From positions 42,086-106,085 of the forward strand of contig CAZZJO010000034.1 of assembly GCA_964654645.1 (NCBI GenBank): a DNA stretch of 64,000 nt. The letters are read 5' to 3'. Below are positions 9,329 through 43,157 of this stretch, one piece after another. The notes under the pieces are model-generated. The model did not search any database. It worked only from the letters and a program-made list of their open reading frames with translations, and was not told where the DNA came from. This stretch comes from an uncultured Verrucomicrobiota bacterium. GTDB lineage: Bacteria; Verrucomicrobiota; Verrucomicrobiia; Limisphaerales; CAZZJO01. Every line of letters starts with the position of its first letter. Position 1 is the first letter of the stretch. The position numbers and the translations under genes were made by a program.

Positions 9329-12300
9329 TTATTCGAATCGGTTGTTGAAATCGTGAGGGAATAAAGCTGTTCTAAGTGAACGGAATACTGTAGTGGTTGG
9401 TAATAAGTCGCGGTAGACCCGTCCTTGGCTAAAATCCCATCTTAGGTATACAGACCCACTAATGTCGCTGTGTGGCCATTCAATTTGGATTCTAGTGCCA
9501 AATTCTAACCTGGATTGTCCGTTCACCCATTTTTCGATAGCCACACCTGCGTACACATCATGTTCTATGTAATTGTTTTTTCTGTCTGAATCGGCGAAGA
9601 AATATTTTGCGGCATATCCAATTTCGGTTCGGGCAGGGTAGATTAACTGTTGCCAAGTTGTTCTGAAACCAATGTTATCTGGGCTAAGGTCCTCGTTACT
9701 GGTTAATCTGAATCCTGTTTTGAGGAAGGTGTCGATCCATGGTCGGTAGGAGTAATCCATATTTATTGCATAACCCCATTTGTGATCCGCCCGGTAGCGG
9801 GTAAACAAGTCATGATCTATGTAAGTGAATGGCTCTGCCTTAGAGGTATCCAAAGTTAACCAGCGACCAAAGACCGTTACATATGGATGGAGCACGCTTT
9901 TTCTAGTGAGGTTGTAAAGGGGACCGATTTGGAATGTCGAGTGGATGCTACCTTCCCAGCGGCTTTCATGGTTTTCAATATGGCCGGTGTAACCAGCAAG
10001 GGTTAACCGCCAAGGCAAGTTTATGGTGTTTGGTCTTTGCTCAATATCTTCGCGCAATCCAAAGGTTGTATGCCCGTTATAATGGAATCGGGCGATGCCT
10101 TCTGTGGCAAACCAGGTAGTTTGTGAGAAAGCCTGTTTGTTATAGGCAACCCTAAATTCCCCAAACTTGTTAGGAATCGATTCTTTCCCAGGTTCGAGTT
10201 CATATGGTTTGGTGCGTGCCAAAGACATTAGCACACTCCAAGTACCGTCTTCTTGTCCACCAAGGGGGTAGTAATCGTAGATGTTTGTTATAGCCCTGCT
10301 CTGCAGGACTGGAGTTGTAATAAGGGGTTCGGGTTTTGGTTCAGGGGTACGCATGTTGATCCCTCGTGTGGGGGGGAATGGTTCTGGAGCAATGTTTAGT
10401 ACAGAAATACGGCACCAATCTTCCGTATATCCCTGGCGGGGATAAACTGATATGGATTGTATGTTTTCCGCCTTGAGGACATATTCGTGCACGATCCCAT
10501 TTGTATCCAATCTATCGATCCGGATCAGACACGGTGATTGGCATGCAAAAGTAATTGGGTTTTCTAGCGTGGTGCGATAGAAAAACCATGTTTCAGCAAG
10601 GGAATCGAATGGGATTGAGGCAGGGGAATTGATTCTGTCCTTTTGCAAAGTGCTAGGTTTGATCCGTACCACTTGGTTGGCAATGGGATTTGTTATCCAC
10701 ACAGACACAACATGAAGGCCTGCTGGTAGTGTGGTGGACCATTCAAGGGGAGCAGTAGAATTGGTTATAGTGACATAATTGGTGGTATTGTTTAGCTTTA
10801 TTGCGATGCTTGTAGGATGAAAAGGCAGAAATCCCACAGAGAGTGGTTGGGCCTCGATCTTTAGCTCAGTTTCGTTTGTGATTGTTAGTGTGAGCGTGAA
10901 GATCCGGTTAGCTGTCAAATCGATCCACCCAGGTTGTTTCGGGGGTAAAAGGGCCATTCGCACACGCATACTTGGCTCAAGTGTGGCGTCCAACGGAAAC
11001 GGGATGGGTTTGATTGCTGAAGAATTGGGTTGGTCTGGTGGAATGGTCCAACGGCAGTTTTTTGTTAGCCTGCGGGAATCTGGGTATGCGCTGGCGTCAA
11101 AATTGGTCTGTAGGTAGAAAAGACCATAGGTTCGAGCAATAGGTTCTAAGTCGGGGTAAAACTCTGCTAATTCAAGCCAGAACCATAACTGTTTTGGAGA
11201 TTCAACCTGTGGGAGTAGTTTTACCGCTTCCTGTAGACGGTGTTGATTAATTAGCATGCAGACTTTTTCACTAATGGGCACATTTTGGGGTGGTAAATGA
11301 TCTGCCATGTCCCAAAGTCGCCACTTTTTTATGGCAAACCACTGTTCCTTGTGAGGGAGTTGTTTTAAGTCGTCTATCGTTAATGAGAATGGAGGATTGT
11401 TATTTGGCAATCGCAGTGCTAACCTTAATTGTACGGAAGATGGTAGTGAGTGCATTTTATCATTTAGCCATGTTTCGGGGGGCTTAAATGAAAAACTTTT
11501 GTGGGGAGATGTGATAATCTCCCGGCAAGATTCTGTGGGAACCAACCAAACCTGATTATCTGTTTTAATTTTTCTGGGTGGTTTTGAGTTGAGACTCAAG
11601 GGATTCTCAAGCAAACGGAAAAATTTTTCAGGATCTGGTGCTGGTAATATGCCTGTTTGTAGGGCTGGTTCAAATCGATAAACGCGAATAAGCATTGGCA
11701 AGGAATGAGGACGGATAATGATTTCGTGTAATCCAGGACCTGTCTCGAAGAACCGAACAGCTTTCTGCCCGACTAGTTCGTTAGTTTTTGATGTAAGTTG
11801 GAGGGTAGGTGTAGGTATACACGAGCTTATAGGGATCTTATTTGTGAGATCATATTCTGTAAGCTCAATCCAAGTATCGATGGGATCGGAAAGGGTGGGT
11901 GATAAAAGCGGTCTGATTTCCAGTTTTAATCGGGTGGGGCCAAGGCATTGAATAGTAATAGGAGCGTTTGATTCCGCGCGGAAAAAAGTGGTGTAAATGT
12001 TGCGTTCAGGATTATAGACGAGTTCACCTGCTGCAAAGGATTTGATTAGTTCTGGGGCATCGTACCACAACCATGGGCCAGGAGTATTCGCATACCAATC
12101 TTCCCAAGCTAATAGACCCTCAATTCGTTCGGCTAGGTTTGAGGAGCCGAGTGATTTGCGGATATTGAGGCCTTTTCTGAGGTGGTCTAGCAATTTTCTG
12201 CCGCTTTCACCTGATACTGATAGGTGTTGTTCAGCAGCGGCGAAGTCGTAAAATGTTAAGCTTTTGATCCCAAGCCAATAACTCTTTTCACTAGAGTTTT

Positions 12301-14770
12301 GAAGTTGGTGTACAAGAGAATCAAACAAAGACCACCAATTAAGCCGGGTTGCGGAAACTAACATTTCTGGGAGCGGTTGGCTTTCCGGTGGTAAAAGGAG
12401 TCCTACGGAAAGGAAGTATTCTTCCCGACCGTTTATATAAAACGCTTTTGCCAAGTCGCTCAATGTTTCGGTACTTGGGTTTTTCAAAAATAGTACACAT
12501 TGAAGTTGTTCTAGTTCATCGTAATCTTGAGTCGCAAGCGCGTTTGATTTAAGGATTTGAATTGCTATAGTTGGGACAGAATTCGAAGGTGTTATGAAAA
12601 TTGCGCTACGCGCGTATCGCATAGCTAAGTAATGTTCTTTAAGCTGGTTTAATAACTGCGTAATGCGTTCCATTGCCTCAACTTGGGATTGGCCAACCAA
12701 TAGGAGTGCATTCCACAATTTGAGTGCTTCAATTTGGTATCCGGTTTCCTCTAGGTATTGGGCTTTATGAATTAACTCGGACGCGTTGTCTGTTTGTTGG
12801 TTGGTATGGCTAGGCAGGTTTATCTCCAGGCTGTTTGTAAAGTTGCGCCAATGCGTTTCAATAAGTTTTCGAATGGGATGGAAATGCTGGGCAAGTAAAG
12901 CATTCACTTGGTTGGCGAAGGTTTGGGAATGATTTTGAGGTGTGAGGAGTTTGAGTTTGGATAAGTGGTCTAATTGCTTTAGTGTGTGCAACAGGGTAGT
13001 TTGATTGAGCTGGAGCGGTTTATCGGCTTTGTAGGCGATCGAGACGTAAACCGGTGGACGATCGCGGTCTTGCCAAACACGGATTTTCTTAACGTCTTTT
13101 GGGAGGGGTAGTTCTGTGTATGCAGCTTGGATCCAGTTCAGTGGCAAATCGAACTCTAAGCTAAACAGCGGGATTTGAGTTGGGAACTGGGTGAATTTGT
13201 ATTCGATGACTCGGCTTGTTCCAATGGGTAGTGATGGTTCGTAAAGTATACTTTTTGGGGGCGCGGGAGATACTGTGATTGGAATTGGAGGTTTATCTTC
13301 GAGCTGTACTGAAAAAGTAGTCTCATTAGTGCAGGCTATCGCAATCAGTAGCTTGGAATTGAATGCTCTGTCGGGCAATTCGTACAAGATACCATTAGTT
13401 GAATCTTGAGGCACCGGGAGAAATCGGCCGATAGTTATGTGCCCCTGGATTTGGCGGAAGGTAGGATTGACAATAGGCATGTATTCTTTGAATGGCTCCT
13501 GATGGATTATAGGGCGTACTAGATAGGCCATTTCAAGTGTTATAGCATTGGGTGAGTAGGTTGGTAGTATTTCTCTCCAGAACATGCGGAGATTTTCTGA
13601 TTTACTCGCTGTAAAACTTAGCCGGTTATGATTTGAGAATAGTTCAGAAAACCGCCATAGCAAATCGGCAGCGATAGCCCCGGAATCGAGACTTGTATTG
13701 TCCAATATGAGAGAGTGTGAGATTTTTTCGATCCCATACAGCTTAGACAATGTAAGAGGAGCGTGTTTTTCAAAATAGTTTTTAAATATCAGGGTAGCGT
13801 GAGAACCGTCCACGGGATTGGTATGTGATTGGCAGTCAATGAATGGCAAATTAAGTTTAGTGACCAACGCGGGCGGTATATCCAGTGCGTATCCTGCTAT
13901 TAAGATTGGCGTTGTTGTTTGAATCGCTATGGTGTGTTTGTTTGGTGGTATTTGGATGTAACCGAAGGCGGGGTAGCTCACTGGGATGTAGTTGGTTTGA
14001 GTTTTAGAGTATCTGCTTCGGTCGTAAGTAGCTATTATCGGTAGTACTTCGGATTGATTTCCGTCGAGGGAGATTCTTATAAGCTGCAATATATGTTGTT
14101 TCAGGGGTTCTGTGGTGGGCCAAATGCTATAAACTACCAATTCTACCCATGTAGGACCCTCAGTATTAAATTGTAATTCGTCCCCGGGGTTTAGGAGAAC
14201 AAAAGGGTGCAGCAATGGGGCGTAATCACGCGGGAGTGTAACTTTAGTCCCGCGCAAGGGGATTGGGGTCCGATAAAACGAAGGCAAGGCGATAGTTTCT
14301 TGCATGGAGACAAAAACACCGAGCTCGATTGAGGTAGTGAAGCGGGTGGGGCGTCTAATCCGGATGCACAATGGGGAAAGGTTAGAATTGTAAACTATTA
14401 GGTCTTTGGGGGAGGGGCGAAAGCATTGGCTTGGGACGAAAGCGCGACCATCAAAAGAAAATTCAATTTCCAGGTCTTCTACTAAGATTAAATCCGAGGC
14501 GGCCAATCTGAGGAATGAAGTAGGTGGAAGAAAAATCAAGCTGTATTCACCCGGGTGCAAAGTTATGATATGGTACCCCTTTTTAATAGAGAATGTAGGT
14601 TTTTGCCCCTCAATCCAGAGTGGTTTATCTTCGATATTGTACCAGCGGGTTTGGAGGAGGATTGTCTGGTGGCAGCCCCAAGTAATTGGATTCCAGCAAG
14701 TGACAACACCCTTGCAATAAGAGGTGAATGCAGCAAGTACAATTAATGCGACTCCGAAAATACGGATCAT
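9329..14770 (-). CDS. Giant (about 1813-1821 aa) secreted protein: beta-sandwich modules, TPR-like helical repeats and a C-terminal outer-membrane beta-barrel-like domain. Putative outer-membrane export component.
   Basis: The start at 14770 (MIRIFGVALIVLAAF, signal-like) forms an ATGA overlap with the stop of the upstream gene; the track start is 14794. Helical repeat region around aa 600-905. The last ~315 aa (nt ~9332-10282) are alternating amphipathic aromatic-rich strands (WRLTLAGYTGHIE, LHPYVTVFGRWLTL, WGYAINMDYSYRPW, IGFRTTWQQLIYP, TEIGYAAKYFFAD, SRLEFGTRIQIEW, SVYLRWDFS). Confidence 0.65.
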   Translation of the reverse strand: MIRIFGVALIVLAAFTSYCKGVVTCWNPITWGCHQTILLQTRWYNIEDKPLWIEGQKPTFSIKKGYHIITLHPGEYSLIFLPPTSFLRLAASDLILVEDLEIEFSFDGRAFVPSQCFRPSPKDLIVYNSNLSPLCIRIRRPTRFTTSIELGVFVSMQETIALPSFYRTPIPLRGTKVTLPRDYAPLLHPFVLLNPGDELQFNTEGPTWVELVVYSIWPTTEPLKQHILQLIRISLDGNQSEVLPIIATYDRSRYSKTQTNYIPVSYPAFGYIQIPPNKHTIAIQTTTPILIAGYALDIPPALVTKLNLPFIDCQSHTNPVDGSHATLIFKNYFEKHAPLTLSKLYGIEKISHSLILDNTSLDSGAIAADLLWRFSELFSNHNRLSFTASKSENLRMFWREILPTYSPNAITLEMAYLVRPIIHQEPFKEYMPIVNPTFRQIQGHITIGRFLPVPQDSTNGILYELPDRAFNSKLLIAIACTNETTFSVQLEDKPPIPITVSPAPPKSILYEPSLPIGTSRVIEYKFTQFPTQIPLFSLEFDLPLNWIQAAYTELPLPKDVKKIRVWQDRDRPPVYVSIAYKADKPLQLNQTTLLHTLKQLDHLSKLKLLTPQNHSQTFANQVNALLAQHFHPIRKLIETHWRNFTNSLEINLPSHTNQQTDNASELIHKAQYLEETGYQIEALKLWNALLLVGQSQVEAMERITQLLNQLKEHYLAMRYARSAIFITPSNSVPTIAIQILKSNALATQDYDELEQLQCVLFLKNPSTETLSDLAKAFYINGREEYFLSVGLLLPPESQPLPEMLVSATRLNWWSLFDSLVHQLQNSSEKSYWLGIKSLTFYDFAAAEQHLSVSGESGRKLLDHLRKGLNIRKSLGSSNLAERIEGLLAWEDWYANTPGPWLWYDAPELIKSFAAGELVYNPERNIYTTFFRAESNAPITIQCLGPTRLKLEIRPLLSPTLSDPIDTWIELTEYDLTNKIPISSCIPTPTLQLTSKTNELVGQKAVRFFETGPGLHEIIIRPHSLPMLIRVYRFEPALQTGILPAPDPEKFFRLLENPLSLNSKPPRKIKTDNQVWLVPTESCREIITSPHKSFSFKPPETWLNDKMHSLPSSVQLRLALRLPNNNPPFSLTIDDLKQLPHKEQWFAIKKWRLWDMADHLPPQNVPISEKVCMLINQHRLQEAVKLLPQVESPKQLWFWLELAEFYPDLEPIARTYGLFYLQTNFDASAYPDSRRLTKNCRWTIPPDQPNSSAIKPIPFPLDATLEPSMRVRMALLPPKQPGWIDLTANRIFTLTLTITNETELKIEAQPLSVGFLPFHPTSIAIKLNNTTNYVTITNSTAPLEWSTTLPAGLHVVSVWITNPIANQVVRIKPSTLQKDRINSPASIPFDSLAETWFFYRTTLENPITFACQSPCLIRIDRLDTNGIVHEYVLKAENIQSISVYPRQGYTEDWCRISVLNIAPEPFPPTRGINMRTPEPKPEPLITTPVLQSRAITNIYDYYPLGGQEDGTWSVLMSLARTKPYELEPGKESIPNKFGEFRVAYNKQAFSQTTWFATEGIARFHYNGHTTFGLREDIEQRPNTINLPWRLTLAGYTGHIENHESRWEGSIHSTFQIGPLYNLTRKSVLHPYVTVFGRWLTLDTSKAEPFTYIDHDLFTRYRADHKWGYAINMDYSYRPWIDTFLKTGFRLTSNEDLSPDNIGFRTTWQQLIYPARTEIGYAAKYFFADSDRKNNYIEHDVYAGVAIEKWVNGQSRLEFGTRIQIEWPHSDISGSVYLRWDFSQGRVYRDLLPTTTVFRSLRTALFPHDFNNRFE

Positions 14771-15642
14771 TGGTGAGACACAAAGGAAAACCATTCGGCC
14801 ATGAGCTGGCGTATGAGAGCGTTTGTGTACAACATTTCTCTGGCAGGCCTTGCTATTTCAGTATGAATGAAGCGGGCGTTTGGAAATTGGCGTAATGCAG
14901 CAGCTTGGGCATTGCGTGTTCCTCCGAGCACTGAAGTGTCGTAAGGGTATGCCGCTACAATAAACCCGGTGATATCGGAAAGTGCGTATGCATAGTTTGT
15001 GAGCCAATTTGGTGGCTTGTTGGTAGCGGCGCTAAGCACTACGTCTGCGTTTAATTCGGGGTAGTTACTGGGTGCGAAACCATGAATTTGTATCACCCTT
15101 CCTGTGGGACAGACATATGCAAATGATGTGGTGAAGGACTGGAAATAGGTACCGTCCATGTGCGCCATATCAGCGAGGGTTCGGGTGACAGTTGCTACTG
15201 CTAGAGCATGAGCGCTGCTGTTTGTGAAAAGATGCAATGCAATATATCCAGTGTAAAGGTCGTTTTTGGGATGCGGTGCTTGGATTGCTAAAGGCCAGTT
15301 GCTTGGTGTAGTGGGGCGGAAGAGATAAAACCCGCGACCTGCTTGGTTAGTTACAGGTTCGGTAACAAGCCAGTATGATTGTCCGCCGTATTGTACGGTT
15401 TGCAATTGAAATCCTAAGGCCCCCCATGCTGATTCTAGTTCTGAGGTCAGGTTTGTTATAGATAACATTTCGCAAAATAGCGCCGAGGCGGTTTCAAGCT
15501 CAGTAGTTGTAGGTGCATAATAGTTCGTATTATTGGATATCAGCTGGCGAAGTAGTTGATGGAGATCGACTTCTTCGGCCTGGCTGATGGCTGTTATGAC
15601 TACCGTCGTTGTAACTAGTAGTCTTAAGTTTAGTTTACGCAT
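14767..15642 (-). CDS. Secreted 291-aa protein. Tentatively a metal-dependent amidohydrolase of the PghP/DUF867 (poly-gamma-glutamate hydrolase) or N-formylglutamate-amidohydrolase-like fold.
   Basis: Signal peptide MRKLNLRLLVTTTVVITAISQA/EE. Motifs AIQAPHPKNDLYTG, VIQIHGF and FIHTEIARPAR resemble the PH(x)GGIExGT, hhhHGY and hQLEhs motifs I recall for PghP-type enzymes. It is a paralogue of a module found twice in the 1067-aa neighbour. Confidence 0.45.
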   Translation of the reverse strand: MRKLNLRLLVTTTVVITAISQAEEVDLHQLLRQLISNNTNYYAPTTTELETASALFCEMLSITNLTSELESAWGALGFQLQTVQYGGQSYWLVTEPVTNQAGRGFYLFRPTTPSNWPLAIQAPHPKNDLYTGYIALHLFTNSSAHALAVATVTRTLADMAHMDGTYFQSFTTSFAYVCPTGRVIQIHGFAPSNYPELNADVVLSAATNKPPNWLTNYAYALSDITGFIVAAYPYDTSVLGGTRNAQAAALRQFPNARFIHTEIARPAREMLYTNALIRQLMAEWFSFVSHQ

Positions 15643-15645
15643 GGC

Positions 15646-18138
15646 TTAATAGATGGTTTCGATGTCCGCAGAAATTTTTTCTGATTGTGGAAGTGTAATT
15701 CGCGAGAGGGATAACCAACGCGGTGATTCAGACACCGTGTGGATCTCGATTTCATATTCTCCTGCGGGGACATCTTCATTTACAGGGAACACGAAGGATA
15801 AGCCTTCGTCAAGGTAGATTGATTGGCCTATTATGTAGGAAAGTCCCTGGTTTAAGGTTGAGACCACAGTTATTTCGCGCTTGGGTAGTGAGACTTCGGT
15901 GAATGGTCCATATCCTTGGTATTTAAGCCCCTTAAAGCTTAATTTAAATGCACAGGGTGAGTTACTGGCAGTCGTTGGGGAAAAGATCCTAAGTACAATT
16001 AACTCTGGCTGTGAACTGGCTTTTGAGTACTTAAATTTAAGTGTATTGGTTTGCACTTTTAAGCAGTAGCGCAGAGTGTACAGTTCCAAATTCTCGCCTG
16101 TGGAATCAGGCGAGACGTAATTAACGAAAGCACGGAGCCCGGAAGGCGTACCCATAATAGCGAGTTTGTGTATCCCTGGAGATATCCGGGGCATTCGGAT
16201 GATAGCTGGCAGGTTAGGCAAAGGTTTGTTAAATATGATTTGCTCGTCTAAGATGACACTTACGGATCCCGTGTATGCACTGGTACCTAGCAGTACTAGT
16301 GTCGGTTGTATAGTTTCTTCCTGGGGCGGACTCATGAAGGTTAAGAGGCTGTTGGTAATGGTAAGGATTGGAACGAAGACAAATGGGAGGCTGTGAAGTC
16401 TGTTGGTGTCTCTAAGCTTCGCAGGGCAGAAAACTAGGTTCCCAGGCATGGTGGACTCCCTTAGAGTCAGGGATTCCCAGTCATACAATCCGCTTGCAAT
16501 CAACTGATTAAGCACGGGGGGCCTAGGTTGAATAGCGACGATCTGGGAGAGTCTTTGAAGGCGTCGTTCCAAGGAATCTATTGGTCTAATAGTGAACCAG
16601 GTGGGGTGTTCCGGTGAAAGGAGCCCCGGCAAGAATTCAGCGGGGAATAGTGACTTTTTGGGTAGTTCTCTAGGTCTCGAGTATGCGTTAACCAGCACGT
16701 TTGATGTGTTAGCTTTGATGCGTACCCCTGTGACGTTGGTGGGCAGAACAAAACATAGGGATTGGGGGTCTGTTACTTTTAAGATAGCAGCTTTTGTTGC
16801 AATGAAATCGTATTGTGACACAGGGTTGGTGATTGTGACAGTCCCTGTATTTATGACGTATCCGGTAGAGTCAAGAAGTTGATAGATAACCGAAGGGGTT
16901 GGGTGTGGTTTTTCATTAGTTTTTGGGGGTACCAGGGCGCGAAGGTCCGCTCTAAATAGGGTGGGGTTAAACCCATCGTGATGTATGGAGAACTCGATAG
17001 GTTTTTGCTCGGGGCAAGCGAAAGTTAGAATTCTAGGCTGAGTGGGTGCAATCATATTAGTTTCGTGATCCACACATTCAATTAGCTGCCAGTATGTTGG
17101 TGTTGAGGAACGGATTTCGATGAGTCCTAATTCCGTTGGGGCGGGTAATGTGAAGGTTTTGCCCGAGGATACATATTGGTTAGTTTGCGGGTCCCCTATC
17201 GGCCAAGGATACCACGTAACTGTATTTGTGACCAAGATCGAGGAGGGTACAGAAGCGTCTTTGATACCATATAGGAATCGGACTCGTACGTGATTTGTGA
17301 CTGGTAGCACAGCGACTGTGTTTGCGTCAGATAATACACCTGGGGGCAACCACTCCTCAAATGATTCCAACCCGGAAAGATCGTCGCGTATGTAGATAGT
17401 TACGCTTTTATAGTCTTTTTTTGGTATGCCTTTAGGGGCTACTCCGGCCCAGTGGAACCGCAGCAAGTTAGCTTTTTCGGTGGGTGAGATAAGTTCAATT
17501 GGGTGTACATTTCCACGGGCGAGCAATTGTTTTTGAGAGTAACTGAGCCTATTCCACAGATATGCAGCTTTACGTTCGGGGATTGGTTTACGGCCGTAAA
17601 GCCTTACTAAGACTTGTTTTACATCTGGATCAGCTTTAGAAAGCCGTATTCTAAGCAGTCTTGTATTCTTAAACTTTGGACTATCGAGATTGACAATCCA
17701 CAGGGTACTGCTCAAAGGTATCAAATCTGGTGCGAGGAGATAGTTGGCCGGAACGAAGATTCCGGAAGATCCTTCGATGAACCCGCGTGGTTCGGATTGG
17801 AAGTAATAAATCCCTTGTGCATTGGTATGGTTTTGGCTTGCCAACATTTGGTATTCAATGGAAAAAATCACCTGGATTGCTTTGTTGGAAAGCAGATCTG
17901 CGGTGACGATTGGATTGCAAATCAGCTTTAGTTGGTTTGCCTCTTTTGGGAGGTCGAATTCAAGCCAACGATTTGTTTGAAGGAAATACGCGGTGCTTGC
18001 GAGGGCTGGTTCAGTTCTAGGGATAGTAAATCGGTGGGCAACAATCCAGACACGGATTTGGGGAATAATTTTGAGTACGATCCAAATTACTGCAATGATT
18101 GCCAAGATTAGGAACCATTTGTTACGACGGATACGCAT
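15646..18138 (-). CDS. 830-aa membrane-anchored, predicted periplasmic beta-rich protein of unknown family. It shares modules with the 1821-aa protein.
   Basis: Single N-terminal TM helix (WFLILAIIAVIWIVLKII). No recognisable enzyme motifs. Recurrent strand motifs (LTFACPEQKPIEFSI; SPGIHKLAIMG; PAGEYEIEIH) are also present in the 1821-aa protein. There are 1-nt and 3-nt gaps to the flanking genes. Confidence 0.6.
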   Translation of the reverse strand: MRIRRNKWFLILAIIAVIWIVLKIIPQIRVWIVAHRFTIPRTEPALASTAYFLQTNRWLEFDLPKEANQLKLICNPIVTADLLSNKAIQVIFSIEYQMLASQNHTNAQGIYYFQSEPRGFIEGSSGIFVPANYLLAPDLIPLSSTLWIVNLDSPKFKNTRLLRIRLSKADPDVKQVLVRLYGRKPIPERKAAYLWNRLSYSQKQLLARGNVHPIELISPTEKANLLRFHWAGVAPKGIPKKDYKSVTIYIRDDLSGLESFEEWLPPGVLSDANTVAVLPVTNHVRVRFLYGIKDASVPSSILVTNTVTWYPWPIGDPQTNQYVSSGKTFTLPAPTELGLIEIRSSTPTYWQLIECVDHETNMIAPTQPRILTFACPEQKPIEFSIHHDGFNPTLFRADLRALVPPKTNEKPHPTPSVIYQLLDSTGYVINTGTVTITNPVSQYDFIATKAAILKVTDPQSLCFVLPTNVTGVRIKANTSNVLVNAYSRPRELPKKSLFPAEFLPGLLSPEHPTWFTIRPIDSLERRLQRLSQIVAIQPRPPVLNQLIASGLYDWESLTLRESTMPGNLVFCPAKLRDTNRLHSLPFVFVPILTITNSLLTFMSPPQEETIQPTLVLLGTSAYTGSVSVILDEQIIFNKPLPNLPAIIRMPRISPGIHKLAIMGTPSGLRAFVNYVSPDSTGENLELYTLRYCLKVQTNTLKFKYSKASSQPELIVLRIFSPTTASNSPCAFKLSFKGLKYQGYGPFTEVSLPKREITVVSTLNQGLSYIIGQSIYLDEGLSFVFPVNEDVPAGEYEIEIHTVSESPRWLSLSRITLPQSEKISADIETIY

Positions 18139-21442: not shown

Positions 21443-22117
21443 CTATGTGGATGGGTGCGGTTTTTTTATTAGTTCGTAAATTTTTTCGGCTAATTGTTTT
21501 GGATGGACTGGTTTGTTCAAAAAAAGCTCTACTCCCAAAGCTGCTGCTTTTTGTTTTATCTTTGGGTCCTCCACGGTTGTAAAAACCAGAATGGGGCTTG
21601 AGTTTTGATATTCTTGCCTTAGCCATTGGATGAATCGTAGACCGTCCATTACCGGCATTAGTAAGTCTACCAAAATTATGTCGGGTTGTCTCTTCTTAAT
21701 TATTTCTTGGGCAGCGCGCCCGTGTTCAGCAAATATGCAATCGAACCCATTGGACCCAAGGGCTTTTTCAAGTAAACAACGCAAAACGGCGTCGTCTTCC
21801 ACGATTAGCACTAGTTTCCGCTCGTTTTTTTCTGGGTTGGCGGAAATCATTCCTCCGGCATGGGTTGATTCAAAAGAACTAGCACCGAGTGGCTGAGATT
21901 TACTTTCAGGTGATTTTACATCGGTTGTGCTTTCATTAGTATTAGCTTGAGCTGGTGGGGAGGGAAGATTAATTGTGTCCAGCTTTTGGACATTCTCTGC
22001 CCTTTCTTTAGACGAGGCACTACACGGCAGACTTTCGCTTTTTGCCGCTACTCCCATGTTGTGTTTGGCTTTTTTATGTTTATCCAAAAGGGTTTGATCT
22101 TCAAACTTGTTGCTCAT
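21443..22117 (-). CDS. Response regulator, receiver domain only, with a ~95-aa low-complexity N-terminal extension
   Basis: KLVLIVEDDAVLRCLL...PDIILVDLLMPVMDG...LFLNKP carries the canonical acidic pocket, phospho-acceptor Asp and conserved Lys. No output domain is present. The start codon is uncertain (M1 or M21). Confidence 0.8.
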   Translation of the reverse strand: MSNKFEDQTLLDKHKKAKHNMGVAAKSESLPCSASSKERAENVQKLDTINLPSPPAQANTNESTTDVKSPESKSQPLGASSFESTHAGGMISANPEKNERKLVLIVEDDAVLRCLLEKALGSNGFDCIFAEHGRAAQEIIKKRQPDIILVDLLMPVMDGLRFIQWLRQEYQNSSPILVFTTVEDPKIKQKAAALGVELFLNKPVHPKQLAEKIYELIKKPHPST

Positions 22118-22316: not shown

Positions 22317-25013
22317 CTAGGCTTGCTTTGAGATTGTTTGGAATAAACGTAGTTTTAAGGAGATCAAATAACCTTTGCCCACAGTGCTTTTTATATCAAT
22401 TGCTCCGCCCCAATCGCGTACCCAAATAGTTGCATTCCGTAGGAGTCTAAACTCTTCGGAAGTGGGATCATCAGGCGATGTTAAGATATCACGCAAAAAT
22501 TCCTCGGGCATCCCAGAGCCTGAGTTAGAGAAGGTGAACGTAACGGTTGTGCCTTCGTCTCGGATTTGAATACAGATCTCGGAATTTTCGGCAGCATCTG
22601 CAATGAGTAGTCGCAGTATTCCATCGAAAGTTGTTGTTAACTCTACTGGATTTGCTAGTACTTGGACCATGACTTGTGGTGAGTCGATTTTGAAGTTTAT
22701 TCCTGATTCTGCTGCTTTCGGAGTAAGTTGCGTGCAGACTAATTCAAGAGTTGTTAGGGCATCAATGGGAAAAAGCTTCATTGAAGAGGTGTCGACGCGT
22801 GGGCTTAGATATTTTTGGCATTCCCGAAGGATTTGAACACAGGTATCAACTTTTTGTTGTATAGTTTCTAACAAGGCAGTCCGTTCTGATGGTTGGGTAG
22901 AATCAGATTCCAAAAGTGCGGCTGCGAGCTTAATAGCGGACAGGTGATTTCTAAGGTCCACACCGAGTCTGTCCGCTACTATACCTTTTAAGCTTGCCAA
23001 TGTTGCCAGCGAGGTAGTTTCAATTAACTCGCATATAATACCCCTAATATTTGCATGTGCATACTTGAGATGGGTTTCGCGTGGATTGACCAATGGGTAA
23101 ACCCGGAGGAGAAATTGTCGATCTTCTTGTGAGGGTAAAGTAAGGGATCGAGACGCGCTGGAATGTTCAATCAAGACGTTTTGCAAAACCGTCCTTGCTT
23201 CATTGGCATTTTGATCTAAAAGCCAGGTAAGAAGTTCGAATGCGGTGAATCGTTCGGTAGGGAAATTAGCTTGCATGAGAAGCTGTTTTGCGGGTGCATT
23301 GATTTTAACCAGGCGTCCCCAAAAGTCGAATACAAAGGTGGGTATGCTTATTTGTTCGTATACGATTTCAAGGATTTCGTAGTATTGAGCAAGGGACTCG
23401 GTGGCTCTTACCAACTCGCTGTAGACGGGGTTGTTGGTTTCACTTGCAAGCCAATTTGTAAGCCGAACCCCAAACTTCGGCCGCTGCTTCTCTGCTTTGT
23501 TTGTGTAGATTGTTCGTGCAATTTCGTATGAGAGGCGCAAAAGAAGTGGTTCTAGTTTTCGGGGTGGCACTAGTCGGATTTTTTCTAGTCTGACGATCCA
23601 AATACCGATGAGTTTTCCGTCGTAAATTAGAGGGCAAATAAAATCGGTCTCCATTTCTTGGGCAGGGCCAAGGATCTTGTGCGCTAATGTTGGTGATTGG
23701 TTAGCTATAGCTTGTTTATAAACTTGGGAACCGAGATCAAGATACTCAGGGGCTAAATTGTCATCTCTAAAGTTGTAGAATTTGGTGGGAATCAATTTTT
23801 GGGTTTCTCCATTTCGCTCGAGTACCACAAAACGCTTCAGGTTAAAATTTTCTTTTAAGAATGAGGCCAGGCGGTCCCACCAACCGTTGGGGGACACATT
23901 TTTTTGAACGCCAACGCGATCTTCAATTGCGCTAATGGTTCGGAGGCGAAGTTCGTTAATAGCAAGTTGGGCTAATCGGTTTTTGTGAGCCAGTTCTAAC
24001 GTTGATTGGATAAGTATGGCTAAACACAGAGAACCGGAGGGTAACCAATAGTTGGCATACGCAAGAAGCGCCAAGCTTGTTAAAAGTGTAGAGACTATCA
24101 AAAGAAAGGTGGTTCTTAATATTGTCCATCCGCCCATGTGGGTAGATGTGAGTGATGTGGCAAACGTTATGCCCACTATTACAATAAAAAGTAGAATACC
24201 TTTTAGCTCACCGATTATTGAATGTGAGGCTAACGTATGGAGTGCGTATGCTTGGAATTCCACAAGACTCATTGCGTTTTTATTGCGGGCAAGTGGAGTT
24301 TCGATGCTTTTCAACGTAGGGTCCATCCCAATAAGCACAATTTTGTCTTTAACCAAGCTTGGTAGCAGATCCTTTTGTATTACGCGCGCGATGTCTAAAT
24401 TAGGAATTTGTCCGTATATTTTGAAGTTGACTAGAAACGAAGGCGGGAGCGGGAAATTAGAAACATTTCGCATGGATAATAGCGCTGCTTTGGCTTCCAG
24501 AGTAAGTGCATTCGTGCCGGTGATGTTTAACCCAGTGAATTGTTTTCTATAAACGCCGGCTTCCGGAGGGGCGAGATATACGGCGCCCCAATGTAAGTTT
24601 AACCCTGTTGCTTGGGCAGGCCAGGGCGCGAGCTCGAATCGGTCAGGGTCTTCAGGAACAGCGGATGCGAGCCTGCCAAAAACCACAACTTGTAGCTGAG
24701 CAGCGTATTCAAAAAAGTCCCGGCTACATTGTGTTGGCACGAAGTTAAACGCAACAACACGGGCGTTGGCTCCCATAAGGGTTTCTAGGAGTTGGATAGC
24801 TTCCTTATCGCTGAGTTGTTGTGGATCATTCACTCGGATAAAGACTACGGTGGGGGTCTGGTCGCTAACTCGGGCAGCAAACATTAATGCGGTGTCGTAG
24901 AAAAAACCATTGAGGCTAGAGAGCCACCCTGCCTGGGTCAAAATGTAGATTAAGAGGGCTACAAAGATTGGCCCTACTAACCAAGGTCTTTTTGTTTTTC
25001 CCAAAGAAGTCAT
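22317..25013 (-). CDS. CHASE2-domain sensor histidine kinase (CHASE2, TM helices, GAF-like, PAS-like, HisKA, HATPase)
   Basis: N-terminal TM helix, then a ~250-aa extracytoplasmic region followed by three TM helices, which is the CHASE2 layout. H-box VDLRNHLSAIKLAAALLES. C-terminal ATPase-like region ending GGAIDIKSTVGKGYLISLKL. The G1 box is degenerate (SNSGSGMP). Confidence 0.75.
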   Translation of the reverse strand: MTSLGKTKRPWLVGPIFVALLIYILTQAGWLSSLNGFFYDTALMFAARVSDQTPTVVFIRVNDPQQLSDKEAIQLLETLMGANARVVAFNFVPTQCSRDFFEYAAQLQVVVFGRLASAVPEDPDRFELAPWPAQATGLNLHWGAVYLAPPEAGVYRKQFTGLNITGTNALTLEAKAALLSMRNVSNFPLPPSFLVNFKIYGQIPNLDIARVIQKDLLPSLVKDKIVLIGMDPTLKSIETPLARNKNAMSLVEFQAYALHTLASHSIIGELKGILLFIVIVGITFATSLTSTHMGGWTILRTTFLLIVSTLLTSLALLAYANYWLPSGSLCLAILIQSTLELAHKNRLAQLAINELRLRTISAIEDRVGVQKNVSPNGWWDRLASFLKENFNLKRFVVLERNGETQKLIPTKFYNFRDDNLAPEYLDLGSQVYKQAIANQSPTLAHKILGPAQEMETDFICPLIYDGKLIGIWIVRLEKIRLVPPRKLEPLLLRLSYEIARTIYTNKAEKQRPKFGVRLTNWLASETNNPVYSELVRATESLAQYYEILEIVYEQISIPTFVFDFWGRLVKINAPAKQLLMQANFPTERFTAFELLTWLLDQNANEARTVLQNVLIEHSSASRSLTLPSQEDRQFLLRVYPLVNPRETHLKYAHANIRGIICELIETTSLATLASLKGIVADRLGVDLRNHLSAIKLAAALLESDSTQPSERTALLETIQQKVDTCVQILRECQKYLSPRVDTSSMKLFPIDALTTLELVCTQLTPKAAESGINFKIDSPQVMVQVLANPVELTTTFDGILRLLIADAAENSEICIQIRDEGTTVTFTFSNSGSGMPEEFLRDILTSPDDPTSEEFRLLRNATIWVRDWGGAIDIKSTVGKGYLISLKLRLFQTISKQA

Positions 25014-30764: not shown

Positions 30765-32096
30765 TTAGAATTTCACCATTAGATCCACTTGGACGTGATA
30801 GGTTGTTGGGTTAATTGCACCTGTGGGCACGTCTATCAAGTCGTGAATATACGCCCTAGTCCCAATTGAAAGGCTTGAAGTAAAGGCGTAGCTAGCTGCG
30901 ATGTAATGGCCACGTTTATTTGTGCCTGAGTATGAGCCCACACCCTTGCCACTAGAGGGTATGGGTATTGAGTAGTATGCAAGACTGTCGTCGTTGCTAA
31001 ACTCTTCGTACCACGCATCCGATTCAACGTAAACGTATCTATACTCGAGCGCCCACGATCCCTTTTTGGATAGGGTGCCTATGGTGATTCCCGCGTCCCA
31101 CCCGGTGTTGTTGCTTGGAGCTGCAGGATTATGAATAATTTCGCCTGATAATGATACTGGTAGTCGGCCGGGGTACAGACTTATCCCGTCTATCAGGTAC
31201 GTAATTCCCGCTCCGACCACAATGGGATTGAAGTTGTAAACCAATTGCCCAGCAGCGGTTCTTGTATTGCCTACACCTACATTGGGGACCGCTCCATTGT
31301 CGAGATTTTCGCAATTTGCAAGTCCGAATACAGCGCCCTTGACTTCGGTAATCAAGTTTGTCGACCAGGTAGATGCCCATTTGAGTTGAACGCTCGCCAT
31401 ATATGGGTCATGTGAGCTGGTAGGTAGCTCGTCTATCATGAAGGCGCCTGGAGTGATACTAATGACGTGGTTTGTTACAGGGCGCCAAGATAGAGTCCAT
31501 GCTAACCCTTCTGGTGTATAGTCTGGATCGAAAACAACCCAAGTGAAATCGTATGGATTTACCATTTTACCCACAGTTAGAGTGCCAGTTAATTCAGAGG
31601 TTTTTATTGGTGTCCATGACCAATATGCTCTATCTATCCAAACGTACTTCTTGGCTGCATTATCTTGGAAGGTTGTGTACCCACTTGCTAACGGGCTTCG
31701 ATCGGACTCTCCCGAAGCGAGTCGCAACTCAGTCGACATGTTATCTAGCAAGTTCACACTAGTACCAATTCTGAATCGGTAACGGGGTCGGAACCTGTCC
31801 ACGGTGTTTGGTGCATCCACGGTTATGTAATCTCCTCGTACACCGAAGTCACCACTGATGCGGAGTGATTGTACCCAGTCAGGCAATTGTAGTTTATTTT
31901 TTATTTCCATGGATTTTTTTGATTGTTCCTTTTGCAGTTGGATGGCTTCTTCGCGGGTAATTACCCCCTTTTCTACAAGTTTGTCTAGAAGCGCATCTGT
32001 AGACTGGGCTATCAAGATTCCGGTTAAACTCATTGTTTTGCCCAGAATTAAGCATTTTCGTAAGACATTCGTATTATTGTTCACTCGTAGTTTCAT
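30765..32096 (-). CDS. Outer-membrane porin, likely phosphate-regulon associated (OprO/OprP-like function inferred from context)
   Basis: N-terminal signal-like region and coiled-coil motif LLDKLVEKGVITREEA, followed by alternating aromatic beta-strands ending ...YHVQVDLMVKF (terminal Phe). It lies 18 nt upstream of pstS. The start could be M22 (32033). Confidence 0.65.
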   Translation of the reverse strand: MKLRVNNNTNVLRKCLILGKTMSLTGILIAQSTDALLDKLVEKGVITREEAIQLQKEQSKKSMEIKNKLQLPDWVQSLRISGDFGVRGDYITVDAPNTVDRFRPRYRFRIGTSVNLLDNMSTELRLASGESDRSPLASGYTTFQDNAAKKYVWIDRAYWSWTPIKTSELTGTLTVGKMVNPYDFTWVVFDPDYTPEGLAWTLSWRPVTNHVISITPGAFMIDELPTSSHDPYMASVQLKWASTWSTNLITEVKGAVFGLANCENLDNGAVPNVGVGNTRTAAGQLVYNFNPIVVGAGITYLIDGISLYPGRLPVSLSGEIIHNPAAPSNNTGWDAGITIGTLSKKGSWALEYRYVYVESDAWYEEFSNDDSLAYYSIPIPSSGKGVGSYSGTNKRGHYIAASYAFTSSLSIGTRAYIHDLIDVPTGAINPTTYHVQVDLMVKF

Positions 32097-36550: not shown

Positions 36551-38677
36551 TTATGGCTCGAATTCAGGCACTATTTTGACCTGATAGAGGACGACTGGTT
36601 TATTCTGGTGGATTGATAAGTTTACATTGCCGGAGCCCACGATGTTAGAGCCTACTTGAGAAAATCCAGAAGTAGGGTAGTTGGTATTGACAAGGATTTG
36701 ATATGCGCGACGAGGTGCTGTGGGCCAAGTCAACGTAAGGTTTGTGGCCCCCTCTATCATGTAGCCAATTTGGAATCTTGAATGTTTATTTGTAGGATTG
36801 GTACCAGCAACCCATTCAGCGAGGTTAGTGGCACCGTCTTGGTCAGGATCAACCTCAGGACTAATTCCCACACACTTGAAGTAGAATTGTTCCCACCAAT
36901 CAGGTAGGCCATTATAATCGGTGTCAACGATTTTTGCTAAATTGAGCCGTCCAGCAGTGGCTACTCGTTCTCGAAGCGATTCTAAGGGATCTATGGCTGA
37001 AAGGATTCTTTTAACACGTTGATCGAGGGGCTCATCCGGAAAGTTTAATGCGGCGAGACCTACAGCAGCAGCTACAAGGGGTGTGGCCATTGAGGAACCA
37101 GTTTTATAATCGTAAACACTTGTTTCATCAGGCCAAGCTACCACCACCCCTGGAATAGGGCACATGTTACTAAGTAGTAGTCCAGCTTCCATCGTGATTC
37201 CAATTACGGGAATCCAGTTGGAGTTATATTGCAGGGTGCCGCTTATGCTCCCAGAAGTGTTGTTGTAAATAATTGCTGCTTTTGCGCCTGCAGCCATTGC
37301 GTTAGCGATCTTGGTACTAAAATAGATTTCGCCACGTTGGATCAATGCGATGTTGTTGCTTACTTCCCGTGGAAAGTCTGTGGGATAACCGAGTCGGCAA
37401 TGGTAGATAATTCCAGTTACTCCAGGAGTAACACCGGCATATTCAAAATGTTCTCCTTCAAAAACGTTGTTTGTGGTTACCACACGGCAATTTACGAGCC
37501 CGTATTTCAGTGGAATTGTTGACAATATACTATAACCAGGGGCGGCCAGATGGACGGAATTCGTGCCGTAGTTTGCGAACGTGGGGAACTGATCTTCTTG
37601 ATCGGTTGCACTTACGGTTATGATATTTTCCAGTTTGTAGCAGGCAGGGTACACGGGAATATTATCGATATTTTCGCCTTCGTTTCCCGCGGCTGTGCAG
37701 AGGATTATACCTGCTTGCCCAGCCAACTGAATTACCACGAACTCCGCCTCGTTAGAATACGATCCGGAATAAGAGGCATTCAAGGCCACTACATTAAATC
37801 CCCGTTGGCGCAGGGAAACGGCGTATTCAATTGCTGCAATGATGGCGGCGTCTTCCAAGTAGATGCCATCTGAGGAGGCTTTAAGTGGGAGGATCTTAGT
37901 TTTGTAACATGCCCCCGAAATCCCTATGCCATTATCTGCAGTTGCAGCAATGATACCCGTTACGTGAGTACCGTGGTCTCCTGAGTCACTTGAGTCCCAG
38001 GAGCCGGTTGCAAAATCGTATCCCCATATGTCATCGACGTAACCATTTCCATCGTCATCCACACCATTAAAAGGAATTTCTAATGGGTTTTGCCATATGT
38101 TAGAAATCAGATCGGGGTGGGTTCTGTCGACTCCAGTGTCGATTACTCCTATGATCACTGTGTTCGTAGATTCGCGGGTAAGTCCCCAAGCAGCAAGAAA
38201 TTTTATGTCAGCCCCAGGTGTTCCTGTGACACCGTTGATAACTTGGCCTGAATTATTTAATGCCCATTGATTAGAGAAAAACGCTTCTAGCGGAGGTCGG
38301 ATTTGAATTTCAGTGATTTTGCGTAAGTAGTTTGGTTCGACGGTTATTACAGCAGGATTGGTTTTAAGCAATTGAATCAACGCCTTGGTAGACAGGTTGG
38401 TGGAAGTCAACACCATCCATGGGGATTTGTATTTCTCGGTTAAAAGGGTGAACTGCCGTTTTATATGGAGATCATGAGCGCTAAGAAATTTTGCAATAGT
38501 AGACTTTGAAGTATCCTCGCGCCATCGAACGATCACTTCTCCTTCTTTGTACTCTTTGGAGGGATCGAATTCAAATGTTTTTGCAGTCCAGCTGAGTGGC
38601 AAAAATAGCGCAAGTAAAAGTGGTTTGATCAGTCTTTGCACACATTGCTTAATACACACAGGTGCTAGGAGGGGCAA
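36551..38677 (-). CDS. Secreted subtilisin-family (S8) serine protease with a PA domain and a C-terminal beta-sandwich module
   Basis: Signal peptide. Catalytic triad motifs VIDTGVDRTHPDL (Asp), GDHGTHVTGIIAA (His) and GSSMATPLVAAAVG (Ser). PA-like insert ALIQRGEIYFSTKIANAMAAGAKAAIIYNN. DPDQDGATNLAEWVAGTNP calcium-binding-like motif. Confidence 0.88.
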   Translation of the reverse strand: MPLLAPVCIKQCVQRLIKPLLLALFLPLSWTAKTFEFDPSKEYKEGEVIVRWREDTSKSTIAKFLSAHDLHIKRQFTLLTEKYKSPWMVLTSTNLSTKALIQLLKTNPAVITVEPNYLRKITEIQIRPPLEAFFSNQWALNNSGQVINGVTGTPGADIKFLAAWGLTRESTNTVIIGVIDTGVDRTHPDLISNIWQNPLEIPFNGVDDDGNGYVDDIWGYDFATGSWDSSDSGDHGTHVTGIIAATADNGIGISGACYKTKILPLKASSDGIYLEDAAIIAAIEYAVSLRQRGFNVVALNASYSGSYSNEAEFVVIQLAGQAGIILCTAAGNEGENIDNIPVYPACYKLENIITVSATDQEDQFPTFANYGTNSVHLAAPGYSILSTIPLKYGLVNCRVVTTNNVFEGEHFEYAGVTPGVTGIIYHCRLGYPTDFPREVSNNIALIQRGEIYFSTKIANAMAAGAKAAIIYNNTSGSISGTLQYNSNWIPVIGITMEAGLLLSNMCPIPGVVVAWPDETSVYDYKTGSSMATPLVAAAVGLAALNFPDEPLDQRVKRILSAIDPLESLRERVATAGRLNLAKIVDTDYNGLPDWWEQFYFKCVGISPEVDPDQDGATNLAEWVAGTNPTNKHSRFQIGYMIEGATNLTLTWPTAPRRAYQILVNTNYPTSGFSQVGSNIVGSGNVNLSIHQNKPVVLYQVKIVPEFEP

Positions 38678-38919
38678 TTTTTATTTGGCCCTAATCGGGA
38701 CTGAAAACATTTTCGGTTTCGACTTTGATGTGAAAAGACATCAAGACATAGAAGATCGAATTAACAAGGTGTATCAATTATTGACTTGGCTTGGATAGTG
38801 AACTGGGCTTTTGGAGAGGCGGGACCATGGACAAAAAATGCTACGGAAACCAATTGGAAGTTGGATTTCCTCAGCATTACAATCTTGCGTTTCCTGTACT
38901 TGTACCAACCTTAAGGCCT

Positions 38920-42666: not shown

Positions 42667-43157
42667 GGTAGTAAGTAGTTCATTAAATTTTGACATTGGA
42701 GGCCAGGGCCTTCCCTTACAAGTATTTGCCCAAATATTATGATATTTTACCACCTGAGTCAAGGTTGGTTCAGTGGCCGTTTCTGGTGAGCTCTTGCATA
42801 TTTGGATTTAGAAAACCCTCATGGTTTCCTAGGCGCTTACTTATTGGGGTCAATCTAATACCACGGGTAATTCATTAAGCGTGCCCGGATTGTTTTAGAG
42901 AACCGCCTCACCAGCCCTCTCTCGTTTCGATGCCGAGAATCGGGCTTTGGCTTTTAAAATCGTGTTTGGGTATAAATTTTCTAATCAAGGAGCCCCAAAA
43001 TTTTGTTTGCTTTTCCAAGTCAGAGCGGTTCCCTCGAACGTATTTTCTGGGATTAGTTTCGCTACATTGGAACGATTATTTAATTTTGCGAATCGCGCAA
43101 ATGCAGGCAGTTTTAAAAAAGATTGTCTTAAAAGGGGGGGCTCAATAGTCTTGGTAT

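Follow-up and report, generated by a model that had tools for sequence, protein, structure and literature searches.

A predicted outer-membrane barrel protein with a periplasmic scaffold as candidate exit for the polymer of a PgsBC-type synthase in an uncultured Verrucomicrobiota bacterium

Several bacterial polymer secretion systems rely on one polypeptide made up of a signal peptide, a helical-repeat scaffold in the periplasm and a C-terminal barrel in the outer membrane, as in BcsC, PgaA/HmsH and PelB. AlgE, with an arginine-rich lumen for a polyanionic polymer, works with the tetratricopeptide repeat (TPR) scaffold AlgK. Slam (DUF560) proteins of type XI secretion have an N-terminal periplasmic TPR domain and a 14-stranded C-terminal barrel. 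For poly-gamma-glutamate (gamma-PGA), the literature that we retrieved describes the machinery only from Bacillus, and no route through the periplasm or outer membrane of a diderm was found in it. CapB/CapC systems are detected in many diderm phyla by CapsuleFinder, whose model is the Bacillus anthracis capABCDE operon (PMC5542703). Here we analyzed a stretch of 64,000 nt (the window) from an uncultured Verrucomicrobiota bacterium (assembly GCA_964654645.1, contig CAZZJO010000034.1, positions 42,086 to 106,085 of the forward strand). In it, an open reading frame (ORF) for a protein of 1821 aa, hereafter the target, lies among genes with PgsB and CapC/PgsC domains. Structure prediction indicates that the target is very probably an outer-membrane barrel protein with a periplasmic scaffold. 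By analogy with the systems above, we consider it fairly likely that the target serves as the export conduit for the polymer of the neighboring PgsBC-type synthase.

Two AlphaFold2 (AF2) models, both built on family alignments, cover aa 1241-1821 (model 1) and aa 41-1240 (model 2) of the target; the features derived from them are listed in Table 1. Model 1 has a mean predicted local distance difference test (pLDDT) score of 86.4. An initial annotation, made from the DNA sequence alone, had proposed a barrel of at least 12 strands in the final ~315 aa. AF2 supports this, giving 14 long strands at aa 1518-1788, each with a predicted length of 11-16 residues. When model 1 was compared with the PDB by Foldseek, the top 50 matches were almost exclusively outer-membrane barrels. 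The best was OmpG (2wvp and 2f1c, TMt 0.65; 2x9k, TMt 0.59), with ~290 aligned columns and a probability of 1.0. CymA was matched with a TM of ~0.45-0.48, normalised to the target, and also a probability of 1.0. Barrels of 16 and 18 strands fitted much worse: AlgE (8pz4) came at rank 50 with a TMt of 0.29. OccK/OccD gave TMt values of 0.31-0.39 with a root-mean-square deviation (rmsd) >12. PgaA and BcsC were absent from the top 50. Thus, of the barrels that the initial annotation had singled out for comparison (BcsC, PgaA and AlgE), none rivals OmpG and CymA. The target barrel shares its 14 strands with these two proteins, its best structural matches, but identity in the Foldseek alignments is 6-10%, with no family-level sequence match, and OmpG and CymA are stand-alone sugar-importing barrels that lack a periplasmic scaffold. 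The likeness is read as shared architecture, not as family membership.

The two faces of the predicted strands differ markedly in composition. On one face, 90 positions carry on average 2.8 K/R and 3.9 D/E in the family, hence 6.7 charged residues, together with 18 aromatics. On the other, the means are 15.4 K/R and 11.4 D/E over 86 positions, and six arginines are conserved, with R1569 invariant. A face pattern of this kind, nearly uncharged and rich in aromatics versus charged and rich in Arg, is what a water-filled transmembrane barrel looks like, given the modeled strands. Hydropathy alternation along the strands does not, by itself, separate the barrel from the beta-sandwich modules. In its conserved Arg-rich lumen face, the target family resembles AlgE. 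The last strand of the target barrel ends in ...YLRWDF. A conserved tail of 33 aa past the barrel had gone unnoticed in the first reading of the sequence.

Most of the target lies ahead of the barrel. Model 2 has a mean pLDDT of 82.1 and a predicted template modelling score (pTM) of 0.83, and both models bear out the modular layout first proposed. Beta-sandwich-like modules, mentioned there in general terms, appear at aa 49-304, 404-591, 908-1043 and 1247-1468. Helical regions, placed at approximately aa 600-905 and 1140-1235, appear as all-helical stretches at aa 598-902 and 1055-1230. Local Foldseek matches of aa 598-902 included the TPR domain of AspH (probability 1.0), a designed 8-repeat consensus TPR superhelix (8chy; TMt of 0.46 over 236 columns), OGT and SPY. 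At the sequence level, no TPR signature was found: the target had no Pfam TPR match, even when pieces were scanned at E<=10, and hhalign gave the family a probability of 4.8% against a consensus TPR. Hence the claim of a TPR scaffold stands for the predicted fold, with its local TPR matches, and not for the sequence. Describing aa 598-902 as a TPR-like helical-hairpin solenoid is supportable from the model. The initial annotation had been staked on a closed barrel and a TPR solenoid; as predicted, the barrel superposes on OmpG and CymA, and the helical region finds TPR folds. Whole-model Foldseek matches of the 1200-aa model (Cry toxins and others) had a TM of ~0.1 and rmsd >28; these are meaningless and were set aside.

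Orthologues help to place the part ahead of the barrel. An inserted Pfam OmpA domain, which binds peptidoglycan, was found in seven of 22 orthologues scanned and a LysM domain in one, and one member of a family cluster bears the NCBI name 'SPOR domain-containing protein'. The OmpA-type insertion occurs at one fixed point, corresponding to target aa 465/466 (window ~13399/13400); the target itself is without it. P0013, P0034, P0038, P0047 and P0058 are the orthologues noted for such domains. Since peptidoglycan-binding domains of these types (OmpA, LysM, SPOR) work in the periplasm, the non-barrel part is placed there. This evidence bears on a reading of the target as autotransporter-like, with a barrel that carries the N-terminal 1480 residues to the surface to bind or organise polymer. 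The order of parts, in which a signal peptide, a large N-terminal region and a Pro-rich linker precede the C-terminal barrel, would suit an autotransporter, and the EspP, FhaC and CdiB barrels are among the weaker Foldseek matches. We consider it very unlikely, however. The OmpA, LysM and SPOR inserts put the N-terminal part of orthologues in the periplasm, and there is no Pfam match to an autotransporter, POTRA or passenger-repeat domain, including the classical (type Va) beta-domain PF03797. Its 14 strands set the barrel apart from those with 12 or 16, the prediction shows the linker as coil with no helical plug segment ahead of the barrel, and the EspP barrel reaches a TMt of only 0.47. Moreover, compact globular or TPR domains generally make poor type V passengers, and model 2, with its pTM of 0.83, predicts such a fold.

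The target ORF exists as first described, on the minus strand at 9329..14794, and all three peptides quoted from it are found in its translation. A public copy, P0001 (Logan run SRR7539876; JGI), was started by the gene caller at Met9, giving 1813 aa. The signal-like N-terminus that had been proposed is also borne out: aa 1-33 are hydrophobic, and 64 of the 70 family members with a complete N-terminus share the feature. An exhaustive HMMER scan with aa 622-1821 yielded 651 cluster representatives at the cut-off of E<=1e-3, of which 341 reached E<=1e-30, so the ORF is not a chance one. Most members have lengths of 1700-2000 aa, with alignments that span the entire protein; P0002, for example, matches at 34% identity over aa 632-1828. 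Family motifs are PLRWDN near the N-terminus, LGGQEDGTW, DQDVFTxYKxDHR, RPWLDT and, in the tail, GRxYRDF; apart from the N-terminal one, the target versions are LGGQEDGTW, DHDLFTRYRADHK, RPWIDT and GRVYRDL. No meaningful match came from Pfam and NCBIfam on the whole target or from Pfam on four pieces at E<=10, and no PDB chain was matched by sequence, whether we searched with the single protein or with the family profile. Among five members looked up, those with a source name were called 'hypothetical protein'. A word-indexed protein search had returned only the target itself and, with a 60-sequence profile, one further protein. The orphan status that this implied is an artefact of a 5-residue-word prefilter, which misses the family at ~25% identity. 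By sequence, then, the target belongs to a large, widespread and unnamed family that has no Pfam model.

The target gene is set in a compact operon. Five genes, from the PgsC fusion to the PgsB fusion, are spaced by gaps of 8 nt or less, and the PgsB-fusion gene begins 8 nt past the target stop codon. The ATGA at 14767-14770, which had been read as translational coupling, is present exactly as described. To see how far this arrangement extends, we looked for the motif GGQEDGTW in GTDB species, each represented by a single genome, in a search underlain by a 22-sequence alignment. This gave 32 loci in 32 species genomes from more than 10 diderm phyla and proteobacterial classes, almost all of them diderm. 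Carriers include Verrucomicrobiota (closest, 31% identity), Planctomycetota (including Ca. Uabimicrobium and Kuenenia), Nitrospirota, Gemmatimonadota, Cloacimonadota, Riflebacteria, Bdellovibrionales, Zetaproteobacteria, Magnetococcales, Hydrogenophilales, Aromatoleum evansii, Legionella impletisoli and L. yabuuchiae. Gene order was compared by tblastn with the seven window proteins and is the same in most loci, the whole seven-gene order being kept in many. Downstream sequence is available for 30 loci, and in 29 of these the target homologue is followed directly by the PgsB fusion; its direct upstream neighbor is, in most loci, the 291-aa gene. Two Planctomycetota loci have the cassette split into two divergent units. 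The operon argument first made from this window alone is thereby strengthened, as the same PgsC, 830-aa, 291-aa and PgsB neighbors recur across many phyla. The prolyl-tRNA synthetase encoded in the window is 73% identical to proteins of Verrucomicrobiae metagenome-assembled genomes (MAGs) and 67-68% identical to those of Limisphaera. The host is thus a member of the Verrucomicrobiae, and hence diderm.

Several observations weigh against an export conduit or against its assignment to gamma-PGA. The only guides to barrel closure, lumen size and the placement of linker and tail were Foldseek superposition and secondary structure. On the lumen face, the target has a net charge of 0, compared with a family mean of +4, and loop 4 carries invariant acidic residues, naively unexpected in a channel for a polyanion. 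The C-terminus of the target is not aromatic, as the 33-aa tail follows the beta-signal-like strand. The PgsB domain matches TIGR04012 at 3.6e-61 with 207 bits, under the NCBIfam equivalog cutoff of 222.7 bits, and a polymer other than classical gamma-PGA is therefore possible. One of the loci comes from a MAG labelled Clostridia. Finally, in a Mariprofundaceae MAG (locus L032, 9006-22021), the 291-aa gene and the target homologue occur with no PgsB/PgsC within 10 kb; they are followed by genes for an EamA transporter and a 1665-aa S8 subtilase with an HYR domain. This pair may have been relocated or repurposed.

That synthase-free pair would also fit an uptake or turnover channel, one that imports polymer or oligomers for degradation by the 291-aa putative hydrolase. 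The tight coupling of the target to the putative metallo-hydrolase gene points in the same direction, as does the uptake of sugars by OmpG and CymA, the channels with the best fold match. Yet the target gene is directly upstream of the synthase gene in all but one of the informative loci, and no TonB box, plug or genes for substrate-binding proteins were found in the cassette. Hydrolases and lyases (BcsZ, PgaB, AlgL, PelA) are, besides, standard in synthase-dependent systems that export. Uptake is the least probable of the readings considered here.

The target could instead be a periplasmic scaffold, anchored in the outer membrane, that forms no conduit, the polymer being organised or retained on peptidoglycan or elsewhere in the periplasm, much as PGA is fixed to peptidoglycan by CapD in B. 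anthracis. Approximately 80% of the target is periplasmic scaffold, orthologues carry peptidoglycan-binding inserts, the barrel could be blocked by the conserved tail and the long loop 4, and the net lumen charge of ~0 in the target fits as well. Against this, pure anchors are usually 8-stranded, whereas the best fold matches here, the 14-stranded OmpG and CymA, are open channels. Lumen-facing arginines are conserved, and export is the simpler explanation for a conserved pairing with a synthase, as is typical of synthase-dependent secretion. We regard the scaffold-only role as unlikely, although it deserves more weight than the other alternatives, and favor the export conduit.

How does an export conduit of this kind compare with described families? 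The analogy to BcsC and PgaA drawn in the initial annotation holds in part. The target, like BcsC, PgaA/HmsH and PelB, is predicted to unite signal peptide, periplasmic helical-repeat scaffold and C-terminal outer-membrane barrel in one polypeptide, and it shares an operon with an inner-membrane synthase and a putative periplasmic polymer-processing enzyme. The scaffold-plus-barrel plan in a synthase operon therefore stands, but with 14 barrel strands in place of 16 and no relationship by sequence. Unlike BcsC and PgaA, the target has no Pfam TPR or BCSC_C match and no PDB match by family profile; BCSC_C (PF05420) was not matched by the last 420 aa even at E<=10. Its helical region makes up only ~17% of the protein, its periplasmic part consists mostly of beta-sandwich modules, and a conserved tail follows its barrel. 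The partner synthase also differs, being an amide ligase (PgsB/PgsC) rather than a glycosyltransferase. Among the neighbors are the PgsB and PgsC fusions, with no BcsA or BcsB and no glycosyltransferase, and no pgaBCD-like genes are present as in a PgaA/HmsH setting.

Other described systems differ in other respects. AlgE has 18 strands, and its TPR partner AlgK is a separate lipoprotein. Slam proteins are ~500 aa long, export lipoproteins and are not linked to polymer synthases; the target has no Pfam match to DUF560 (PF04575). As in the Bacillus PgsBCA(E)/CapBCA(E)D systems, neighbors of the target carry PgsB and CapC/PgsC domains. Bacillus, however, is monoderm, and its system has no outer-membrane component, whereas here PgsB and PgsC lie within fusions of 1408 and 1067 aa, respectively. 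Thus partners, strand number and sequence all keep the target out of the TPR-plus-porin families, and its functional resemblance to them is supported as an analogy. We infer that the target acts like BcsC, PgaA and PelB, yet evolved independently of them. Two other leads were discarded. Identity with the stalk (sfz) cluster of Zetaproteobacteria was rejected, as the sfz genes encode BcsB-like, GT2, GH10 and CotH proteins (PMC8250860). A lead to 'PgsF', taken from a Cloacimonadota preprint, proved fruitless.

These comparisons suggest a working model. Its well-supported part is the prediction that the target is exported by Sec, that its C-terminal 270 residues form a 14-stranded barrel in the outer membrane and that the preceding ~1480 residues, with the beta-sandwich modules, the TPR-like solenoid and the second helical region, remain periplasmic. 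Beyond that, the PgsB and PgsC fusions would polymerise the chain and move it across the inner membrane. The membrane-anchored 830-aa protein, together with the periplasmic part of the target, would then guide the chain across the periplasm, and in some species an inserted OmpA, LysM or SPOR domain would tether the target to peptidoglycan. The 291-aa putative hydrolase would trim or release the polymer, and the chain would exit via the Arg-lined barrel, which loop 4, the C-terminal tail or both may gate. We infer that the polymer is most likely gamma-PGA.

A broader proposal, to which we give about even chances, is that the family is the dedicated outer-membrane translocon of an undescribed, multi-phylum system that secretes a poly-amino-acid polymer, either gamma-polyglutamate or a relative, across the whole envelope. 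Such a system would include the giant PgsB and PgsC fusions, the 830-aa protein anchored in the inner membrane, the periplasmic hydrolase and the target, with control by a CHASE2 two-component system. It would be a polyamide counterpart, independently evolved, of the cellulose, poly-N-acetylglucosamine, alginate and Pel systems. A literature search found no account of the family or its cassette, and the family is the best candidate so far for the outer-membrane exit of a polyglutamate-type polymer in diderms. If the proposal is right, polymer translocons of the outer membrane would gain a new class, marked by 14 barrel strands, a conserved loop of its own and a tail past the barrel, and the locus would be a complete new secretion cassette. 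It could then be relevant to the biofilm and capsule biology of environmental bacteria, some Legionella included, and to engineering gamma-PGA secretion in Gram-negative hosts.

The partner genes are listed in Table 1. The PgsB fusion consists of a ~700-aa HEAT-like region, a helix at aa 711-741, the PgsB domain at aa 723-1056, with the P-loop GTRGKSG, and a 350-aa C-terminal extension. Across phyla it is 37-61% identical, far better conserved than the target. In the PgsC/CapC fusion, the CapC-like halves occupy aa 1-370, and the ~700-aa extension has no PDB relative. It contains two repeats, and their motifs, VPAPLxE...EAGxxLF and VPRPLFE..FEFGVxLFE, are similar to the active-site region in the 291-aa protein. 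The family of that protein has invariant His124, Asp128, His187, His260 and Glu262 and the motifs LQAPHxFxDxxTG, QLHGF and HLE, with no match in Pfam, NCBIfam or the PDB. It looks like an undescribed putative periplasmic metallo-hydrolase and is possibly a polymer-trimming enzyme. No PgsA/CapA or CapD was detected among the cassette proteins, and the 830-, 291- and 1821-aa proteins occupy their place in the operon. The 830-aa protein may stand in for PgsA/CapA or fill a BcsB-like role; hhalign found no relationship between it and the target family. A CHASE2 kinase-regulator pair travels with the cassette in most phyla, which suggests dedicated, signal-controlled expression or activity. Promoter and terminator scans at the operon ends gave chance-level results, and an Rfam scan of the window found nothing.

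Table 1. Positions of the target, its predicted parts and the partner genes in the window
Feature	Window position	Strand	Target residues	Basis and remarks
Whole target ORF	9329..14794	-	1-1821	1821 aa from first ATG; probably starts at the ATG at 14770 (1813 aa)
ATGA overlap	14767..14770	-		TGA of the 291-aa gene overlaps the target start codon (Met9)
Signal-peptide-like N-terminus, MIRIFGVALIVLAAFTSYCKG	14708..14770	-	9-29	Hydropathy; same in 64/70 N-complete homologues
N-terminal beta-rich modules	13883..14650	-	49-304	AF2 model 2; include family motif PLRWDN (here RWYNIEDKPLW)
Four-helix segment	13586..13798	-	333-403	AF2 model 2
Mixed beta module	13022..13585	-	404-591	AF2 model 2; site of OmpA-type insertion in orthologues
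All-alpha repeat region, ~16 helices	12089..13003	-	598-902	AF2 model 2; TPR-like by predicted fold only
Beta-sandwich module	11666..12073	-	908-1043	AF2 model 2 and family consensus; repeated motif GPxRLxxExRP
Second helical region	11105..11632	-	1055-1230	AF2 model 2
Two beta-sandwich modules	10391..11056	-	1247-1468	AF2 model 1
Pro-rich low-confidence linker	10244..10390	-	1469-1517	Ends in near-invariant LGGQEDGTW at barrel entrance
Predicted C-terminal barrel, 14 beta strands	9431..10243	-	1518-1788	AF2, most blocks pLDDT >90; strand map; Foldseek OmpG/CymA
Long conserved loop between strands 7 and 8 (loop 4)	9779..9856	-	1647-1672	Motif DQDVFTxYKxDHRxG; three family-invariant residues
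Conserved post-barrel tail	9332..9430	-	1789-1821	Consensus GRGYRDFRPGExDFxDLRxRRxPxxxNN
PgsB fusion, 1408 aa	5094..9320	-		HEAT-like N-terminal region, hydrophobic helix, PgsB amide-ligase domain, C-terminal extension
291-aa secreted protein	14767..15642	-		Putative periplasmic metallo-hydrolase; adjoins target in most loci
830-aa protein	15646..18138	-		N-terminal membrane anchor; large domain without Pfam match; conserved in cassette
PgsC/CapC fusion, 1067 aa	18140..21343	-		Two CapC-like membrane halves and ~700-aa extension; Pfam Caps_synth_CapC 4.6e-36
Response regulator	21443-22117	-		~95-aa low-complexity N-terminal extension; no recognised output domain
CHASE2 histidine kinase	22317-25013	-		Pair with response regulator accompanies cassette in most loci

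Other genes in the window were also inspected. Genes of a Hox-type bidirectional [NiFe] hydrogenase (NuoF-like, NuoG-like/Fe-S, small subunit and HoxH large subunit; 441-4794, plus strand) adjoin the cassette, and a double-cubane-cluster reductase gene lies at 45589-46776; together these point to an anaerobic lifestyle. At 36551-42762 on the minus strand, a 1280-aa protein with autotransporter-associated beta-strand (PATR) repeats adjoins a 708-aa S8 subtilase-like protease. A 443-aa ORF without NCBIfam match (30765-32096, minus strand) is located immediately upstream of a pstSCAB-phoU-phoB phosphate operon and, by its position, could encode a phosphate-related outer-membrane or periplasmic protein. 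No 2-kb bin of the window has a negative GC skew (values of 0.00 to 0.26), so that the cumulative skew never drops, even though the minus strand carries nearly all of the long ORFs from 5 kb to 32 kb.

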